A DNA stretch of 64,000 nucleotides from Minisyncoccota bacterium. GTDB taxonomy: Bacteria; Patescibacteriota; Minisyncoccia; Phycocordibacterales; UBA9973. The stretch covers positions 87,806 through 151,805 of the forward strand of contig JBAZYS010000002.1 of the NCBI GenBank assembly GCA_041659205.1. Reading direction: 5' to 3'. Both the position numbers and the translations under genes were made by a program. Shown in pieces: positions 5,373-54,213 of this stretch (positions within the stretch are counted from its first letter, which is position 1; each line of letters starts with the position of its first letter). The notes beneath the pieces were generated by a model. That model was not told where the DNA came from. It made no database searches and saw nothing but the letters and a program-made list of their open reading frames with translations.

Positions 5373-6713
5373 ATGAATACGAAACAGTTGTGGAAAAATT
5401 GTTTGATGAAAATTGAGTCTGGAATGTCTAAAGCAAACTTCAGTACTTGGTTTAAAAATACATCAATTATTAAAGAGGAAACTGGAATTATTTACATCGG
5501 AGTTCCAAATGAGTTTGTCCGCGATTGGTTAATGAATAAATATCACAAACTCATCACTAAAACTATTGCTGAAGCTTATGAGAGTATGCGAGCAGTAGAA
5601 TACACAATTACTAAAATAGAAACTCCGGCCCAAGAAGTAATAACGATCACGGAAAGTGCAGAAAAAGAGCTTCCTTTGAGAGATTTATATATAAACCCAG
5701 GAGACAATCTAAATCCCCGTTACCGTTTCAACTCTTTTATTGTTGGCGCCTTCAACGAGCTCGCTTATGCAGCGTCTCAAGCGATAATAGACTCACCTGG
5801 AACTAAATATAATCCATTTTTTATTTACGGAGGGACTGGTCTTGGAAAAACTCACTTAATCCAAGCAGTAGGTAACTCAATAAAAGACAAGTATCCTGAC
5901 AAAAAAGTGCATTATATGACCTTAGAAAAATTTGCAACTGATTTTATCAACTCCCTTCAGAGCAATAAAGCAAACTCTTTCAAAGAAAAGTATCGTAAAT
6001 ATGATTTATTGATCATCGATGATATCCAATTCATAGGAAAAATGGAAAAAATTCAAGAAGAACTTTTCCATACATTTAATACTTTCTATGAAAACAATAA
6101 ACAAATCATTTTTTCTTCTGATAAACATCCAAACTATATTCCTGAGCTCGCGGACCGTTTAAAGTCACGTTTTGCGGCAGGAATGATAGTAGATATCTCT
6201 GAACCAGAATATGAATCTCGTCTCGCAATCATAAAAGTAAAACTGCGAGAATTAAATATTGTATTAGACGAAGATTTAATAGAATACGTTGCAGGTGCAA
6301 TGCAGGGAAATATCCGAGAGTTGGAGGGGAGCTTAAACCTTATAGTTTGCCAATATCGCTTGAAAAATAAGGCTCCAACCCTTGTAGAAGTAAAAAATTT
6401 ACTTAAAAACAACATGAAGCCAAAGAAAAACATGGCAATAAAAGATGTTGTAAAAATAGTAGCTGAATATTATAAACTAGAAGAAGCTTCTGTTTATGAA
6501 AAAACTAGAAAAAAAGAAATTGTGAAAGCTAGACAAGTTATTATGTATCTACTACGAGAAGATTTTAGTGTTTCTTACCCTTTAATTGGTCAGAAATTGG
6601 GAGGAAAAGACCATACCACAGTCATGCATTCATGTGTAAAAATAAAAGCAGACTTAAAAAATGATTCTCAGTTAATCCAAGAGTTAGAGCAAATAAGAAT
6701 TATGTTTAAATAG
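5373..6713 (+). CDS. dnaA: chromosomal replication initiator DnaA
   Basis: AAA+ Walker A GGTGLGKTHL. C-terminal DNA-binding domain. Conserved rpmH-dnaA-dnaN synteny. Confidence 0.95.
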   Translation: MNTKQLWKNCLMKIESGMSKANFSTWFKNTSIIKEETGIIYIGVPNEFVRDWLMNKYHKLITKTIAEAYESMRAVEYTITKIETPAQEVITITESAEKELPLRDLYINPGDNLNPRYRFNSFIVGAFNELAYAASQAIIDSPGTKYNPFFIYGGTGLGKTHLIQAVGNSIKDKYPDKKVHYMTLEKFATDFINSLQSNKANSFKEKYRKYDLLIIDDIQFIGKMEKIQEELFHTFNTFYENNKQIIFSSDKHPNYIPELADRLKSRFAAGMIVDISEPEYESRLAIIKVKLRELNIVLDEDLIEYVAGAMQGNIRELEGSLNLIVCQYRLKNKAPTLVEVKNLLKNNMKPKKNMAIKDVVKIVAEYYKLEEASVYEKTRKKEIVKARQVIMYLLREDFSVSYPLIGQKLGGKDHTTVMHSCVKIKADLKNDSQLIQELEQIRIMFK

Positions 6714-6951
6714 TTGTTGATAAAGAGTTTAAAACAATACAATAAGTAGTGAAAAGATTGTTAATTAAAAATGATAAAAAATGGTTTTAAATTAAAAAAA
6801 TAATTATTAAAATATTTAAAATAAGTTATTAGTTTTTTAAAAAAAATTAAAACATAAAAAAACATTATAAAATAAGACTTTAAATGTTTATCCACTTATT
6901 AACAGAACTAATATTATTAATAAATTATATATAGAAGATATAAACAAATAC
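6714..6951 (+). promoter_or_regulatory. extremely AT-rich dnaA-dnaN spacer (candidate oriC DNA-unwinding element) with a DnaA box TTATCCACT at 6888..6896
   Basis: About 240 bp at >85% AT with A/T tracts, plus one near-consensus DnaA box. Confidence 0.5.
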
Positions 6952-8049
6952 ATGAAAATAGAATGCTCGACAGAAAAAATAAAAAATGTGATTTCTCAAG
7001 TGGAAAGAATTACTGGTAAAAATTTAACCCTTCCAATTCTAAATTCCATCTTATTAATTGCTTCCGGTAATTCTTTAAAATTTAGATCTACAAATTTAAG
7101 TCTTGGTATAGAGATTGAAATCCCGGCAAAAATTGAGAAAGAAGGGAATCTTGCAATATCTGGTTCTGTTTTAAACGCAGTTTTTTCAAACGTTTCCCAA
7201 AATGAAAATGTATTTCTAGAAGAAAAAGATGGAAATCTTTTGATTAAAACAAAAAAAAGCCAAATAAAGCTTAAAAGTCAGCCTTGTGAAGATTTTCCCA
7301 CAATACCAATGGTTACAGGAAATAGTTTTGAAATAGAATCAAGTAAGTTAATAGATGGGATAAAATCAGTTTATTATAGTTCTTCTGTTTCAGATATTAA
7401 ACCTGAAATATCAAGTGTTTTTCTTTATACAAATGACGAGAATCTTGTTTTTGTTTCCACTGATTCGTTTAGGCTTGCAGAAAAGAAGGTCAAAGTAAAA
7501 GGGTTTGAGGAGATTTTAGGAATTCTTATTCCATATAAAAACATAGGAGAAATATTGAAAGTTTTTGGAGAAGTTAAAGGTGTAATTAAAGTGTGTTTTA
7601 ATAAAAACCAAATTTCTTTTTCTTCTGAAAATACCTACCTTACATCCCGAATAATAGACGGAATATTTCCAGATTACAGACAAATTATTCCAAAAGAATC
7701 CTCAACCGATGTGGTGGTGCTCAAGCAAGATTTATTGAATGCTTTAAAACTTTCAAATATTTTTTCAGATAAGTTTAACCAAGTTAATCTTAAAATTAAC
7801 CCCAAAGAAAAAGTTTTTGAGCTCTCTTCATCAAATAATGATATTGGTGAAAATAAAACATATTTAGATGCTGTGTTGAGAGGGGAGGAAGTAGAACTTG
7901 GGTTTAATTATAAGTATTTTTTAGATTGTTTTCAGTCAATCAATACAGACAGTGTTAACATAAAGTTGTCCGGGGCTTCTCGTCCAATAGTTATCTCTCC
8001 TGTTTCTGATTCATCCTTTACTTATCTCATAATGCCAATGAATAGATAA
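6952..8049 (+). CDS. dnaN: DNA polymerase III beta subunit (sliding clamp)
   Basis: Three-domain ~365 aa protein directly after dnaA with a typical DnaN N-terminus. Confidence 0.9.
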   Translation: MKIECSTEKIKNVISQVERITGKNLTLPILNSILLIASGNSLKFRSTNLSLGIEIEIPAKIEKEGNLAISGSVLNAVFSNVSQNENVFLEEKDGNLLIKTKKSQIKLKSQPCEDFPTIPMVTGNSFEIESSKLIDGIKSVYYSSSVSDIKPEISSVFLYTNDENLVFVSTDSFRLAEKKVKVKGFEEILGILIPYKNIGEILKVFGEVKGVIKVCFNKNQISFSSENTYLTSRIIDGIFPDYRQIIPKESSTDVVVLKQDLLNALKLSNIFSDKFNQVNLKINPKEKVFELSSSNNDIGENKTYLDAVLRGEEVELGFNYKYFLDCFQSINTDSVNIKLSGASRPIVISPVSDSSFTYLIMPMNR

Positions 8050-8050
8050 T

Positions 8051-8308
8051 ATGATAGAAATAAAAGATTTACTTTCTAGGTTTACTAATCTTTTATTACC
8101 CGAGGAAAACAAAAGGGAAACCATTCGAATGGCCATTTCAAGTGTTATTGGGGTAGAAATATCGTCGAAGGATATAAAAATAAAAAATAATATAATATAT
8201 TTAAATATTAAACCTATTTATAAGAATGAAGTCTTCATAAAACAGGAGCAAATTTTTCTAAAATTGAAAGAAACCTTTGGTGAAAAAAGCCCAAAAGATA
8301 TTCGATAA
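8051..8308 (+). CDS. small hypothetical protein downstream of dnaN (possibly DUF721/DciA-like)
   Basis: 85 aa. Position after dnaN is where DUF721 proteins commonly sit. No motif verified. Confidence 0.3.
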   Translation: MIEIKDLLSRFTNLLLPEENKRETIRMAISSVIGVEISSKDIKIKNNIIYLNIKPIYKNEVFIKQEQIFLKLKETFGEKSPKDIR

Positions 8309-8310
8309 TT

Positions 8311-10860
8311 TTATTGTTGATTTATTGTAAAGTTTGTTTTTGTTTCACCTCGGTTAAAAACTGTGTCATAAGAAATTATTTTTAATTCATTAATGTTTTG
8401 TAAATTTTCTATTTCTCTTCCCGTGAAAGAGAAATTAAAAGGTGCTTCTTTTGTTTCTAAATATATATCATTTATAAATATGTCTATTTTTTGTAAAGGA
8501 TAAATTCCAGAATTAGAAATTTTTAAATTTATTTTCTGATCAAGGAAATAATTTGTTGTACTATTTGGTTCAATAATTGTGACCTTTGGTTGATTCGCAC
8601 TAGTATGAACATCATCCATTAAAACAGGCTTTTCGCTCCAGGTTGTTACTGGGTATTTTCCTTTGTTCTGTGCCCACCAATTTTGGACAGGTATTTCCCA
8701 GTGGTTAAATTGAGAATCATTTTCTGGATTAGTTGGTGTAGGTCCTGAAATATCATTTTTATTTACCCAATATAATATTGAGTGGACATTTGTTATTATT
8801 TTTTCTTGCAAGGTTTCTCTAGGAGTAAATTCTGTTGCTAGTTTCCCCGATATTTTATCTATGAAAAAATTTTCACTTCCCAACCACTGTCCGCGAAGGG
8901 ATGGTTTTATTTTTGTTATATCAGTTTCAGTGTCAGGCTTTTCAAAACTTTCATTTGGTAGAGTATTTAGTGCCTCACTAATAAATTTATTCCAAATTGG
9001 ACCTGCAACAGCAGCACCACCTTTCTTCATTGGAGTATTTTCATTATTTCCTGCCCAAACACCGACAACAATAGAAGGTGTGTACCCAATAGTCCAAGCA
9101 TCCTTACTGTTGTTTGTCGTTCCTGTTTTTACTGCAACATTTCTTCCAGCTATATGAAGAACTGAGTTTGCTCCGAAGGTAGGGATTCGCGCACTATTGT
9201 CTGACAAAATATCTGAAATAGTTAGGGCAGAATTTTTTGGCAAAACTTCTTCAGTCCTTGGTTGAAATTCTTCTAAAACTTTTCCGCTTAAATCTTCAAT
9301 TTTTAAAATTCCAGTATATGGATTTCTCGCACCACTATTTGCAAAGACCCCATAAGCGGAAGTCATATCCAAGAGAGATACTTCTCCACCTCCAATAACA
9401 AGAGTCAAACCATATTGCCCGATATTTTTTAAGGTGGTTATTCCCATATCTTCTGCTGTTTTTAAAGAAGCAGGAAGGCCAGCTAAATAGAAAAGTTTTA
9501 CAGCTGGAATATTTATTGATTGAGCGAGTGCATCCCTTAGATTCATTGGACCACGAAACTTTCCATCAAAGTTGTCAGGCATGTAGCAGTCCTTTTGATT
9601 GTGTCCAGGATATGCCTTACCATAAGCGTCGCAGGTGCTCTGAAATTCAGTCGGTAGGTCAAAGAGTACAGTCTCAGGAGTAAACCCCTTATTGAAGGCC
9701 GTAGCGTAAATAAAAGGCTTAAAAGAGGAGCCTGGTTGTCTTGCGGCAGTGGTTATATTGAAATTACCATCAATTGTTTTATCAAAATAATCTCTTGATC
9801 CAACCATTGTTAATATTTGCCCAGTTTTAGGGTCTATTGCAATCAATCCTGCATTTTTTCCATTCCAATCTTTTTCGTTTTTCAGTGCTCCTTCTTTTAC
9901 AATCTGTTCTCCTTTTGCCTGTAAATCTGCATCGATAGTTGTGATAACCTTAAGTCCACCATTGTCCACCATTCCTGTACCATATTTTTGTTCCAAATAA
10001 TCTTTTATAAAAAAAACAAAGTGTGCAGCTTTTATTCCCATCGTTGCTTGGGGAGTGAAAATGACTATTTCCTTTTTTGCTTTGTCGTGTTCTTCTTGGG
10101 TGATGAACTTAAGTTCCAACATTCTTGAAAGGACTAAATTTTTTCTGTTTTCTAGTTTATCTTTATTTTTTCCATACGGAGAAAGCATTGTAGGGGACTG
10201 GGGGATGGCCGCTAAATAGGCTGACTCTGCTAAACTTAGGTCCAGTGCATCTTTGTTAAAGTAAGTTTTACTAGCTGCTTCTATTCCATAAACGTTTCCC
10301 CCATAAGGAACTTCATTTAAATAAGCTTCTAAAATTTTTTCCTTTGACATTGCTCTGTCAATTTTTATTGCAAGAACCCATTCTTTTATTTTTCTGATAT
10401 ATTTAGCCAAACCACTGCTTTGAGTTAAAAGCGTATTTTTTACTAATTGTTGAGTAATTGTTGATCCCCCACCACCAATTCCAAAACCAAATATATTTGA
10501 AAGGAGGGCGCGGACAATAGAAGTTATTCTTATTCCACCATGAGTATAAAATTCAGAATCTTCAATTGCGACAGTGGCGTTTTTTATATTAAAACTCATT
10601 TGTTCAAAAGTAACGTCCGTTCTTTTTGTGTCTTGGTGTATATCATAAAGTAGAATTTTTCCCGTGCGGTCATAAATTTGGGTAGAGTTCACAACTTTTC
10701 TGTCTCCAAAAGAGTGAAAGTCAGGAATTTTTAAAGAAAATAAAAGAACTATAGTAATTCCAAGTGCAAAAATAAAAATACCACTACTTAGTAGTAGTAT
10801 GTTTTTCATCATTTTCTTATTTTTTGAAATATGTTTTAGTTTTTTAAAGGTGTTTCTCAT
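8311..10860 (-). CDS. class A penicillin-binding protein 1A (glycosyltransferase + transpeptidase)
   Basis: N-terminal TM helix. GT51 motifs (EDxxFYxHxG-like, GGSTITQQL). Transpeptidase SSFKPF (SxxK) and KTGTT motifs. Confidence 0.9.
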   Translation of the reverse strand: MRNTFKKLKHISKNKKMMKNILLLSSGIFIFALGITIVLLFSLKIPDFHSFGDRKVVNSTQIYDRTGKILLYDIHQDTKRTDVTFEQMSFNIKNATVAIEDSEFYTHGGIRITSIVRALLSNIFGFGIGGGGSTITQQLVKNTLLTQSSGLAKYIRKIKEWVLAIKIDRAMSKEKILEAYLNEVPYGGNVYGIEAASKTYFNKDALDLSLAESAYLAAIPQSPTMLSPYGKNKDKLENRKNLVLSRMLELKFITQEEHDKAKKEIVIFTPQATMGIKAAHFVFFIKDYLEQKYGTGMVDNGGLKVITTIDADLQAKGEQIVKEGALKNEKDWNGKNAGLIAIDPKTGQILTMVGSRDYFDKTIDGNFNITTAARQPGSSFKPFIYATAFNKGFTPETVLFDLPTEFQSTCDAYGKAYPGHNQKDCYMPDNFDGKFRGPMNLRDALAQSINIPAVKLFYLAGLPASLKTAEDMGITTLKNIGQYGLTLVIGGGEVSLLDMTSAYGVFANSGARNPYTGILKIEDLSGKVLEEFQPRTEEVLPKNSALTISDILSDNSARIPTFGANSVLHIAGRNVAVKTGTTNNSKDAWTIGYTPSIVVGVWAGNNENTPMKKGGAAVAGPIWNKFISEALNTLPNESFEKPDTETDITKIKPSLRGQWLGSENFFIDKISGKLATEFTPRETLQEKIITNVHSILYWVNKNDISGPTPTNPENDSQFNHWEIPVQNWWAQNKGKYPVTTWSEKPVLMDDVHTSANQPKVTIIEPNSTTNYFLDQKINLKISNSGIYPLQKIDIFINDIYLETKEAPFNFSFTGREIENLQNINELKIISYDTVFNRGETKTNFTINQQ

Positions 10861-44736: not shown

Positions 44737-45471
44737 TCAGTGCCCGTTGCCGGTGGTTCCTCCACCGATTTGGCCGGAAGGAGCACTGTCTCCTCCACCG
44801 AATGCACGTCCCCCGATGTACGCTGCCGCGAGATGCACGAAGAACGTCTTCCAGGGATGATCCCTCCAGCAGTGGGTGTACCAGTTGCCCTTCGGGGGGA
44901 CAACGGTATTTTCCTTCGGCGGGGGGTTCTTCTTGACGTAAGCCGCGAACGCGGCGTCTAGATCTTCTTTGGTCAGCTGTTGTCTCCCAACGAGGACGTC
45001 CAACTTGCTGTCCATGGAGTCTAGCTTGGCTAATACCAGCTGCATTTCGTTGCAGCTCTTTTCGTACGCCTCCGGGTAGGAGACGATTTTTCCCTTCGGT
45101 TGCCACCCGGTGGTGACAACTTCGTTGCCGCAGACGGCAATCCAGAGGGCGACTTTGGTTTCCTCGTCCACCATGACGAGAACACCAGCGGGAAGAATGC
45201 CCGACGATTCAGTGTTGTTTTCACCCCTGAGGGTGATGATCGGGGAGTCGTGTTCCAAGACGATCCCGATTTCTCTCCGCCAGTTGGGCTTGCGGGGAGA
45301 CAGGTCAATCGGCTTGCCCGCATTTTGCGGGTGCGTATTGAGCCTGAAGTACCTCGCCCCTGACTGTACCTGCGTCGCATGCGTCGGTGTCTGCGCGTTG
45401 GCGATTGAGGCACCAGCGACGAGAAACATTGCCACGGTAATCGTGGCCACTCCTGACAGAATACTTTTCAT
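44737..45471 (-). CDS. GC-rich (~58% GC) putative horizontally acquired secreted protein (244 aa) of unknown function
   Basis: ATG start. Signal peptide MKSILSGVATITVAMFLVAGASIANA. Gly-rich C-terminus. Codon usage (GGC, CCG, AAG) is foreign to the surrounding ~33% GC DNA. A hairpin terminator follows at about 44688..44716. Confidence 0.6.
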   Translation of the reverse strand: MKSILSGVATITVAMFLVAGASIANAQTPTHATQVQSGARYFRLNTHPQNAGKPIDLSPRKPNWRREIGIVLEHDSPIITLRGENNTESSGILPAGVLVMVDEETKVALWIAVCGNEVVTTGWQPKGKIVSYPEAYEKSCNEMQLVLAKLDSMDSKLDVLVGRQQLTKEDLDAAFAAYVKKNPPPKENTVVPPKGNWYTHCWRDHPWKTFFVHLAAAYIGGRAFGGGDSAPSGQIGGGTTGNGH

Positions 45472-45703: not shown

Positions 45704-45775
45704 GCCCTCATAGTTTAATGGATAGAATGCGAGCTTGCGGAGTTTGCGATGTAGGTTCGATTCCTACTGAGGGCA
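45704..45775 (+). tRNA. tRNA-Arg-like (anticodon loop TTGCGGA, anticodon GCG), close paralogue of tRNA-Arg(TCT) at 52505
   Basis: 72-nt cloverleaf. Acceptor GCCCTCA/TGAGGGC. T-arm GTAGGTTCGATTCCTAC. Anticodon stem has 3 Watson-Crick + 2 G-U pairs, so it may be divergent or a pseudogene. Confidence 0.55.
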
Positions 45776-45811
45776 CTAGCACGAAAGAAGCCAACTGCTT
45801 GGCTTTACGTA

Positions 45812-45900
45812 GGAAGCGAAAAGCTTTTACCTATTTTTTTATAAAAAATGTAAAAGGTATACTGTTCTCGTAGAGAAAGATTTCCTACTGAGGGCACAAA
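45812..45900 (+). repeat. conserved ~85-bp module downstream of tRNA-Arg, ending in a direct repeat of the tRNA 3' end (CCTACTGAGGGCAC)
   Basis: About 85% identical to 52636..52725. Contains AAAAGGTATACTGTTC (-10-like TATACT). The final 14 nt exactly repeat the 3' end of this locus's tRNA. Confidence 0.6.
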
Positions 45901-52504: not shown

Positions 52505-52576
52505 GCCCTTGTAGTTCAATGGATAGAACGAAGCTCTTCTAAGGCTTTGATGTAGGTTCGATTCCTACCAAGGGCA
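52505..52576 (+). tRNA. tRNA-Arg (anticodon TCT)
   Basis: GCCCTTGTAGTTCAATGGATAGAACGAAGCTCTTCTAAGGCTTTGATGTAGGTTCGATTCCTACCAAGGGCA. Anticodon loop CTTCTAA. Confidence 0.85.
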
Positions 52577-52635
52577 CAAAATAAACGAAGTGTATTTCGG
52601 GCCCGAGAACAAGCAAATTTATTTGCTTGTGTGTA

Positions 52636-52725
52636 GAAATCGAAAAGCTTTTCCTTATTTTTTTTAAAAAAATGGAAAAGGTATACTGTTCCTGTAAGGA
52701 AAGATTACCCTACCAAGGGCACAAA
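52636..52725 (+). repeat. conserved ~85-bp module downstream of tRNA-Arg(TCT), ending in a 19-nt exact repeat of the tRNA 3' end (CCTACCAAGGGCACAAAAT)
   Basis: Homologous to 45812..45900. Contains AAAAGGTATACTGTTC. It is followed by two mutually exclusive hairpins (GTAAAGCA-AGTAAAC-TGCTTTAC or GCAAGTAA-ACTGCT-TTACTTGC) before the rluA-family gene. Confidence 0.6.
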
Positions 52726-52768
52726 ATGCGTAAAGCAAGTAAACTGCTTTACTTGCGACCTAAAATTT

Positions 52769-53552: not shown

Positions 53553-53975
53553 ATGGCAGGAAATAAAATTAATAAAATAAAATTTAGTCCAGTAGATATT
53601 GAAGAGCGAAAAAAGCTTGATTTCAAGGCTGGAGACACAGTTTCTGTATCATCAAAGATTATTGATGAAAAGGGCAAGTCTCGTTTTCAGGTTTTCGAAG
53701 GTATTGTCCTTGCTCGCAAGCATGGAGGAGAGGCAGGAGCTACTTTTACCGTTAGGAAAATCGCTTCCGGTGTTGGAGTTGAAAGAATCTTCCCTTTATA
53801 TTCTCCAATGATAGGAGAAATTAAAATAACCAAAAGAGCTCGTGCCCGCAGAAGTAAACTCTACTATATCCGTACAAAAGCTGTAAAAGATGTCCGCCGC
53901 AAGATGCGTTCTGTCGCAAACCAAATAGAAGGAGAGCCGGATGTTGCAGAAGTAGTAGAAAAGGCAGCAGAATAA
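53553..53975 (+). CDS. rplS: 50S ribosomal protein L19
   Basis: FKAGDTVSV...FQVFEGIV...ERIFPLYSP matches L19. Confidence 0.9.
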   Translation: MAGNKINKIKFSPVDIEERKKLDFKAGDTVSVSSKIIDEKGKSRFQVFEGIVLARKHGGEAGATFTVRKIASGVGVERIFPLYSPMIGEIKITKRARARRSKLYYIRTKAVKDVRRKMRSVANQIEGEPDVAEVVEKAAE

Positions 53976-53993
53976 AAATAAACAAACAAAAAA

Positions 53994-54020
53994 ATCCATT
54001 TCACAAAAGTGGATTTTTTT
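53994..54020 (+). terminator. rho-independent terminator after rplS (ATCCA-TTTCACAAAAG-TGGAT + T7)
   Basis: Stem-loop followed by TTTTTTT. Confidence 0.7.
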
Positions 54021-54046
54021 GTTAGAGTTTGTTTGGTGTTGTTTTT

Positions 54047-54128
54047 GCCCAGGTGGAGAAACTGGTAGACTTACTACCTTGAGGTGGTAGCGCCGAAAGG
54101 CATGGGGGTTCGAGTCCCCCCCTGGGCA
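54047..54128 (+). tRNA. tRNA-Leu (anticodon GAG), long variable arm
   Basis: GCCCAGGTGGAGAAACTGGTAGACTTACTACCTTGAGGTGGTAGCGCCGAAAGGCATGGGGGTTCGAGTCCCCCCTGGGCA. Confidence 0.85.
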
Positions 54129-54147
54129 CAAAAGCGAAGCTTTTGTG

Positions 54148-54213
54148 AGTCCGCAGCGCGACGGCGCGAGGAGCGGGCCGCGAAATTTTTCAGCAGAAAA
54201 ATATTTGCGACCC
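54148..54213 (+). repeat. GC-rich miniature repeat family 2, copy 2
   Basis: AGTCCGCAGCGCGACGGCGCGAGGAGCGGGCCGCGAAATTTTTCAGCAGAAAAATATTTGCGACCC. The hairpin GCGC-GACG-GCGC covaries with GCCC-GACG-GGGC in copy 3. It sits between tRNA-Leu and tRNA-His. Confidence 0.7.

Follow-up and report, generated by a model that had tools for sequence, protein, structure and literature searches.

Structured modules that repeat and complement the 3' ends of their tRNA genes: a non-coding family on tRNA 3' flanks in Patescibacteria

Tyrosine integrases that target tRNA genes may integrate at the T-loop, and the att sites of this class combine an intact tRNA with a downstream copy of its T-loop-to-3'-end segment, at times slightly longer than the gene, in fixed orientation; several elements in succession can stack at one tRNA. 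Something of this appearance is found twice in a 64-kb stretch of the genome of a Minisyncoccota bacterium (64,000 nt of the 163-kb JGI metagenome contig JBAZYS010000002.1, referred to below as the window; all position numbers are those of the whole window): tRNA-Arg(GCG) and tRNA-Arg(TCT) are each followed by a small module that ends in a copy of the gene's own 3' end. These two copies belong to a widespread family of small, structured, non-coding modules on the 3' flanks of tRNA genes in Paceibacteria-type Patescibacteria. The family is apparently undescribed; literature searches found no description of a tRNA-tail module. Its members differ from tRNA att sites in having 100-300 bp between the repeats and neither integrase nor cargo, in enclosing a structured core together with an antisense copy, and in occurring at many tRNAs, with arms that match each.

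Other described systems come close in one respect or another. The 178-bp repeats of Escherichia coli tyrT/tyrV (rtT/RttR RNA) form tandem units after a tRNA gene, each with its last 19 nt, much as two units stand in tandem in L051 (L numbers designate compared loci from other genomes). They differ from the module in being unrelated to it in sequence (the module has no Rfam rtT match) and in being confined to a single locus and a single tRNA; we know of no antisense arm or three-way-junction core in them. An RNA is processed from the tyrT/tyrV repeats (10.1101/2024.07.17.603846). Within the Patescibacteria, tRNA genes contain self-splicing group I introns in the anticodon loop, at position 35/36 (PMC13011429). 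Introns and module share a phylum, and both are structured, non-coding, tRNA-gene-associated insertions; the introns, however, interrupt the tRNA, whereas the module lies downstream of an uninterrupted one and gives no Rfam group I signal. A self-splicing group I intron was accordingly rejected as the identity of the module (intact upstream tRNA, no Intron_gpI match, a length of ~90 nt). Comparison with hammerhead, twister and group I intron cores, by eye only, gave no match, and on the unit itself ARAGORN and Rfam make no tRNA call. Rfam 15, searched at permissive thresholds with the window and eight loci, has no family that matches the modules. The best hit, to RF02973 (Enterococcus-1), reaches 31 bits where the gathering score is 71.4, in L051 only and not in the window copies; it is a weak lead from architecture, the L051 units sharing with this motif an outer stem, a hairpin and a long stem enclosing hairpins.

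A second set of parallels is with single-stranded DNA architecture. Integron attC sites and the CTX-phage attP hairpin consist, like the module, of an imperfect inverted repeat closing a structured centre, in which the stem equals the target duplex and the pairs covary; their units, too, form arrays ending in a shared core, and their recombinase need not be encoded next to them. They differ in target (attI/dif rather than a tRNA 3' end) and in repeat length (7 nt as against 14-31 nt), and the core sequence of the module is highly conserved. The PATEs derived from IS200/IS605 and the REP/RAYT elements are likewise small, non-coding, rich in hairpins and orientation-specific, and are mobilised in trans. 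IS608 finds its cleavage sites through DNA-DNA pairing to a guide that lies inside the element, beside a hairpin. That guide is 4 nt long, the arms of the module 9-23 nt, and ends and hairpins are unrelated in sequence; the likeness to attC/CTX and to IS200/IS605 would thus be one of architecture only.

The window holds seven tRNA genes (ARAGORN). The two hosts, which ARAGORN calls as tRNA-Arg in both cases, are tRNA-Arg(GCG) at 45704-45776 (host of copy 1; Rfam tRNA score 62.2 bits) and tRNA-Arg(TCT) at 52505-52577 (host of copy 2; 72.9 bits), against a gathering score of 29 bits; they and all the parts of the two copies lie on the plus strand. A sequence-only reading of this DNA had recorded two tRNA loci, each followed by a module about 85% identical to the other and ending in a repeat of its own tRNA's 3' end. 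So it proves: the modules at 45809-45885 and 52633-52709 are 84% identical over 77 nt, and the terminal repeats are exact over 14 nt and 19 nt. The same reading placed the modules 35-60 bp after the tRNAs; downstream they are, but the gaps from tRNA end to module start are 32 nt (copy 1) and 55 nt (copy 2). It also observed, correctly, that the TGA/CAA difference between the two acceptor stems is mirrored in the repeats. Its suspicion that tRNA-Arg(GCG) is a decaying paralogue is contradicted by the score just given and by the presence of this isoacceptor in ~20 related species. From start to start the repeats are 121 bp (copy 1) and 145 bp (copy 2) apart. Shuffled sequence is expected to contain the pattern GGTATACT-N15-35-AGGGCAC 0 times; the window contains it twice, and a covariance model of the family run over the whole window finds exactly two matches, at 93 and 85 bits.

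Copy 1 begins with hairpin H (AAGCCAA-CUGC-UUGGCUU, 45788-45805, recognised from the sequence and by comparison across loci). Next comes an antisense arm, A', GTAGGAAGC (45809-45817; cross-locus alignment and covariation), which complements the 3' part of the T-loop and the T-stem 3' strand and is the 5' strand of the closing stem, P1. The three-way-junction core (45818-45883; 85.2 bits, with covariation) comprises J1/2, GAAAAG (45818-45823); the P2 hairpin (45824-45856); J2/3, GTATACTG (45857-45864); P3, TTCTC-GTA-GAGAA (45865-45877); and AGATT(T) (45878-45883). The copy is completed by the distal sense copy of the tRNA-Arg(GCG) 3' end, S(dist), CCTACTGAGGGCAC (45884-45897), which has the same 14 letters as the proximal one, S(prox), made up of the T-stem 3' strand, the acceptor 3' strand and AC at 45763-45776.

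Copy 2 has a longer left part (52578-52630, delimited from the sequence and by comparison with L083): a small trailer hairpin (52578-52597), a degenerate acceptor-antisense arm, CGGGCCCGAG (52598-52607), which is intact as GTGCCCGCAG in the orthologue L083, and hairpin H (52609-52630). Arm A', GTAGAAATC (52633-52641), and the core together span 52633-52706 (93.1 bits), with P2 at 52648-52680, J2/3 at 52681-52688, P3 at 52689-52701 and AGATT at 52702-52706. The distal sense copy of the tRNA-Arg(TCT) 3' end, CCTACCAAGGGCACAAAAT (52709-52727), repeats the 19 letters of S(prox) and trailer at 52564-52582 and so reaches 5 nt beyond the end of the tRNA. The wider flanks of the two copies are unrelated. 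Copy 1 has its closest relatives in the Arg-GCG units of other genomes, and its hairpin H recurs in those of L006, L032, L054, L069, L077 and L081. The core of copy 2 is also of the Arg-GCG type, while for its trailer, antisense arm and hairpin H the orthologous sequence is that of the L083 TCT locus; with an Arg-GCG-type core inside a TCT-type flank, copy 2 is chimeric. (A technical note: folding the last 35 nt alone as a minihelix gave z = -3.8 for copy 1 and no fit for copy 2; that model is superseded by P1/P2/P3.)

How widespread is the module? An exact pattern, GGTATACTGTTC-N6-8-GAAAGATT, was searched on GTDB contigs, one genome per species, and matched 73 loci. Two of these are archaeal, seemingly by chance; the rest come from patescibacterial metagenome-assembled genomes or uncultured bacteria, many of them labelled Paceibacterota, Nomurabacteria or Parcubacteria (the annotations carried also by the homologues of the window's proteins), so that the core is present in ~70 species of Patescibacteria. 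A tRNA gene on the same strand lies 44-300 nt upstream of the core at 60 of 71 loci, and at 6 of the 11 others a contig edge intervenes. The hosts are of at least 14 tRNA kinds: Arg-gcg (~20), Trp (~12), Glu-ttc/ctc (~10), Arg-tct (6), Lys-ttt/ctt (5), Arg-cct (3) and Leu (2), then Ala, Gln, Pro, Asn and His, with Ser and Val added by the covariance model. An 8-kb locus has ~1-3 units, and about one tRNA in ten in the examined loci bears a module. (The host of an array of both module types in L019, at oriented positions 1151-1224, is called "tRNA-Stop(tta)" by ARAGORN, possibly a suppressor or a mis-called tRNA.)

Whatever the tRNA, the sequence that follows GAAAGATT copies the 3' end of the adjacent one. 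Tail and tRNA are identical over 14 nt in 21 of 62 copies and differ by at most two mismatches in 31 of 62. Since tails copy their own tRNA, the mirrored TGA/CAA difference of the two window copies is an instance of a family-wide rule. The repeat ranges from 5 to ~31 nt in length; some tails continue beyond the gene into its trailer (25 nt in L070, 23 nt in L046, 22 nt in L045), up to 9 nt past the tRNA end. The distal copy is often cut sharply after the T-stem strand plus 0-6 nt, which is not point-mutational decay, and the distal T-stem strand that closes P1 is almost always retained.

The antisense arm upstream of the core, a feature that the sequence-only reading had missed, is likewise matched to the tRNA: GTAGG-AATCGAA, for one, is the exact reverse complement of TTCGATT-CCTAC. 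About half of the loci have an extra segment that is reverse-complementary to the acceptor 3' strand with its AC, and in many cases to the trailer too, and in L052, L038, L025, L072, L036, L063 and L015 this segment and a terminator-like hairpin form a long palindrome. Of 32 arm positions that correspond to a G-U pair in the tRNA, 29 have the base that would form a Watson-Crick pair with the 3' strand and 2 have the base found in the tRNA's own 5' strand; the arms match gene and trailer, not the mature CCA end. Could such an arm simply belong to the tRNA's terminator? An inverted acceptor copy lies within 130 nt downstream of 21 of 68 tRNAs with a module and of 3 of 64 without; because the inverted copy is thus tied to the module, a general origin in tRNA terminators is ruled out. 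(Of the three exceptions, at least one carries a diverged module that the covariance model picks up; no such module is confirmed for the other two.) In L072 a second, continuous arm of 21 nt, GTGCGCCCGGTAGGAATCGAA, perfectly antisense to tRNA-Lys, is found ~90 nt after the type A unit (the module described so far is termed type A), at a distance of over 300 nt from the tRNA; next comes another core, ending in TTTGTGACCAC, and no sense copy follows that core.

Alignment of 61 units and 88 covariance-model matches allows the general anatomy to be specified. A unit measures ~130-200 bp around a conserved core of ~90 nt and reads, 5' to 3': an optional trailer or terminator hairpin, the acceptor-antisense arm, hairpin H (loop ~CUGC, homologous across tRNA types), the T-stem/T-loop-antisense arm, the core, GATT and the sense copy. 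The core itself runs from a T-stem-like 5 nt plus AAUC through GAAAAG, P2, G-GUAUACUG, P3, A and GAUU (with 0-2 further nt) into the T-stem 3' strand and then the acceptor 3' strand. P2 is a hairpin of variable length with a frequent tandem G-A motif at its apex; P3 has the form UUCNN-GUA-N'N'GAA. Double changes are seen at all 13 of 13 P2 pairs and all 5 of 5 P3 pairs, with 92-99% of cells paired. None of 500 shuffles reaches the observed values, and slid controls are 43-59% paired, compared with 88%. Because P2 and P3 covary, TATACT, which lies between them, is an invariant junction and not a promoter: as a σ70 -10 element it was rejected on the further grounds that a promoter scan makes no call, that there is no fixed distance to a -35 element and that what lies upstream is the 3' strand of a hairpin of variable length.

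Is the folded form RNA or DNA? In the P2 and P3 helices of type A, G-U pairs number 29 and A-C mismatches 23, compared with 72 and 6 in tRNA stems from the same loci, although this count is sensitive to alignment; the lack of a G-U excess, judged from sequence comparison, would be DNA-like. About half of the type A units lie behind a canonical-looking intrinsic terminator; others, including copy 2, lie in the spacer between the tRNA and a downstream gene. To go by the layout of L006, tRNA, spacer and downstream gene are probably co-transcribed.

A related module, type B, stands directly after tRNA-Leu(GAG) (54047-54129), at 54130-54212 on the plus strand (from comparison and alignment), and has homologues in at least 10 other loci. 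It has the 5' arm and the context of type A and the layout GUG-AGUCCGCAG-CGCGACGGCGCG-AGGAGCGG-GCCGCGA-hairpin-UUGCGACC. Because its helices covary and include two near-invariant G-U pairs, type B is probably a structured RNA; it has no Rfam match. Between copy 2 and the start codon of the RluA gene, at 52735-52760 (plus strand), an H-like hairpin plus GCGACC looks, on comparison with L085, L009 and the type B alignments, like what a deletion has left of a type B module.

The distribution of units within loci is suggestive of movement. Apart from the tandem of L051, arrays of different cores, separated by sense or antisense copies, are found in L026, L016, L018 and L072; orphan units with tRNA-type arms lie away from tRNAs in L044 (2160-2251, after a gene that looks rdgB-like by eye), L006 (14218-14323) and L082. 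Different tRNAs in different genomes can have cores that share an identity of 0.9 or more. The orthologous site between tRNA-Arg(TCT) and the RluA gene is occupied by a unit in the window, L083/L084 and L062, while L006 has none (its tRNA abuts the ATG) and L009 has a module remnant. In two close relatives, L002 (9798-9948) and L004 (5178-5329), this locus is locally rearranged: tRNA-Val and tRNA-Arg(TCT) are inverted as a pair with respect to the RluA gene, and neither relative has a type A module there. In L026 (oriented positions 5592-7580), tRNA-Arg(GCG) precedes a unit whose core is a different one, then a complete sense copy with trailer and a type A variant; further 3' come two open reading frames (ORFs; one of unknown function, the other a C39-like peptidase) and then a 5'-truncated unit ending in a tRNA T-stem strand. 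Since the two ORFs lie between units, they are bracketed in the manner of a cassette.

What, then, is the module for? The explanation to which we lean, tentatively and at somewhat less than an even chance, is that of a non-autonomous insertion module specific for tRNA 3' ends and targeted by its tRNA-complementary arms. The unit would insert at the segment of a tRNA gene that extends from the T-loop to the 3' end, or immediately beyond it, and, being placed there, would leave that segment on both sides of the insert. The arms would recognise the target by base pairing, within a hairpin whose folding recreates the double strand at the 3' end of the tRNA gene, and the enzyme would be supplied in trans. 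Tandem units, arrays, orphans, filled and unfilled TCT sites, the chimeric copy 2 and near-identical cores at different tRNAs are all insertion-like. What the sequences show is the family itself, its covarying structure, the rule that ties arms and tail to the neighbouring tRNA, the arrays and orphans and the lack of linked protein genes; mobility, a guide role for the arms and the active form, be it folded DNA or RNA, are inferred.

A good deal weighs against this explanation. 1) Neither the window nor ~650 kb around the units yielded a recombinase, a transposase or a reverse transcriptase. 2) The nearest relative of a unit is in another genome in 37 of 42 cases and in the same genome in 5 of 42, so that recent within-genome bursts are not evident. 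3) No precise polymorphism between a filled and an empty site was caught (the "empty" L009 bears its remnant), and a metagenome scan for an empty site yielded none; all that it brought up was a contig end and a relative that carries a type B module. 4) In at least 12 loci with a truncated distal sense copy the acceptor-antisense arm is still a perfect match to the tRNA, which suggests a constraint linked to the tRNA itself rather than a dead insertion. 5) The count of G-U and A-C in type A shifts with the alignment, and the near-invariant G-U pairs of type B are RNA-like. 6) The arms would have to be rewritten for each new tRNA, and the explanation offers no route for this.

The large ORFs of the window show no recombinase or transposase domain. 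Clustering of 555 ORFs neighbouring the units disclosed no recurrent recombinase family, merely housekeeping synteny (a 160-aa membrane protein upstream of tRNA-Arg-GCG is an example), and no TnpA-like (IS200 Y1) ORF was found near units in the compared loci with an IS200 TnpA probe. A conventional miniature inverted-repeat transposable element was also considered and rejected: the repeat varies from 5 to ~31 nt, copies number ~1-3 per 8-kb locus, and the units are confined to tRNA tails and a few orphans.

The main rival, unlikely but well short of negligible, is a cis-acting structured RNA in the tRNA 3' trailer, co-transcribed with the tRNA; the regulatory tRNA-3'-end mimic suggested by the sequence-only reading falls under this heading. 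The antisense arm would pair with the 3' strand of the tRNA and its trailer, or else with the downstream sense copy, in which case a tRNA-like mimic of the acceptor and T arms would close the core; the sense-antisense-sense layout might direct 3'-end processing, or separation from the downstream RNA by RNase P or RNase Z, and a stable tRNA-like small RNA could be another product. The unit is always downstream of the tRNA and on its strand; at the TCT site of the window and of L062/L083 it occupies the spacer that separates tRNA-Arg(TCT) from the RluA gene; in L006 this gene directly adjoins the tRNA, a layout from which co-transcription may be surmised. Strong conservation of core sequence and structure, the tandem G-A motif kept at the apex of P2 and the conserved G-U pairs of the related type B module all fit an RNA. 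So do acceptor-antisense arms that stay perfect while the tail is truncated, a distal T-stem strand that is nearly always kept, and arms that complement the precursor (gene and trailer) instead of the mature CCA end; the E. coli rtT RNA, processed from repeats that contain a tRNA 3' end, is a precedent. Yet about half of the units stand behind a canonical-looking intrinsic terminator with no space for a promoter of their own, P2 and P3 have no G-U excess, and the direct repeat may include trailer bases with no obvious role in an RNA. Arrays, nesting, orphans and at least 14 tRNAs, each with three matched segments, would be hard to arrive at by the ordinary evolution of a regulatory element.

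A further possibility, which we rate as improbable and below the cis-acting RNA, takes the arms to be a programmable guide: a mini-element with no protein of its own in cis, or the RNA made from it, would read the 3' end of a specific tRNA gene or pre-tRNA through 9-23 nt of Watson-Crick pairing. The guide would either home the element into the tail of that tRNA or, through the sense-antisense-sense layout, work as a switch that gates the maturation of that tRNA; both versions are compatible with the data.

The interpretation put forward first, an attL/attR footprint, is very improbable and close to refuted. It would have a tyrosine-integrase element (a prophage or island) integrate in the tRNA and then lose nearly all of its DNA, and the geometry of T-loop integration does account for a full tRNA with a partial T-loop-to-3'-end copy. 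The part of the sequence-only reading that survives is the direct repeat and its att-like or target-duplication character, up to 9 nt past the tRNA; the integrase and the cargo do not materialise at any locus, the search around related loci that it recommended having turned up no integrase among the 555 neighbouring ORFs. A decayed large island would hardly leave the same covarying core of ~90 nt between the repeats in ~70 species and at 14 or more tRNA kinds with no integrase or transposase nearby, and an internal antisense copy of the target is foreign to ordinary att sites. The core pattern has 0 matches in IMG/VR viral contigs, in a phage collection and in a plasmid collection, on which basis an origin as a phage attP was rejected. 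The adjacent "GC-rich island" cited in support is an ordinary 244-aa ORF (44737-45471, minus strand) that lacks a Pfam match and whose N-terminus is hydrophobic and signal-like; the equivalent position in L006 is taken by a collagen-like ORF.

Least probable of all, and refuted as far as sequence analysis allows, is a pseudo-tRNA with a T-loop insertion or a segmental duplication of a tRNA-Arg locus with its downstream promoter: acceptor-like and T-stem-like strands do occur in tRNA order and TATACT does resemble a -10 hexamer, but the arms complement the 3' strand and are not copies of the 5' strand (29 versus 2 of 32), no remnants of D-arm or anticodon arm exist, hairpin H is homologous across tRNA types, the flanks of the window copies differ (copy 1 has its orthologues among Arg-GCG units of other genomes, the copy 2 flank in the L083 TCT locus), and the supposed promoter is the invariant junction of covarying helices, at a variable -35 distance and with no promoter-scan call.

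Some features of the surrounding window may be added. The dnaA and dnaN genes lie at 5373-8049, next to the window's lowest GC content (0.27-0.30, in the AT-rich 6000-9000), and cumulative GC skew climbs from there; this is probably the region of the chromosomal replication origin, and, since the skew rises from dnaA/dnaN, both tRNA-Arg genes are seemingly on the leading strand. Upstream of tRNA-Leu, at 53974-54034, is a 28-nt inverted repeat, 79% complementary, with weak, sub-threshold Rfam matches (Thr_leader, OrzO-P); it is probably the rplS terminator.

Patescibacteria have tiny genomes and single-copy tRNA genes, and yet about one in ten of the tRNAs in the examined loci comes with a module. 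The family accounts for many of the "partial tRNA" fragments and intergenic repeats of metagenome-assembled genomes; it is a marker for Paceibacteria and a candidate for inclusion in Rfam and for biochemical tests. If the module is an insertion, mobile DNA would have a novel route to essential genes that does not destroy them; if the arms guide that insertion, these ultra-small bacteria would host a mobile element of a new kind, guided by base pairing. If it acts as an RNA, the processing or control of RNA in this major and poorly understood lineage would have a new, tRNA-specific layer.

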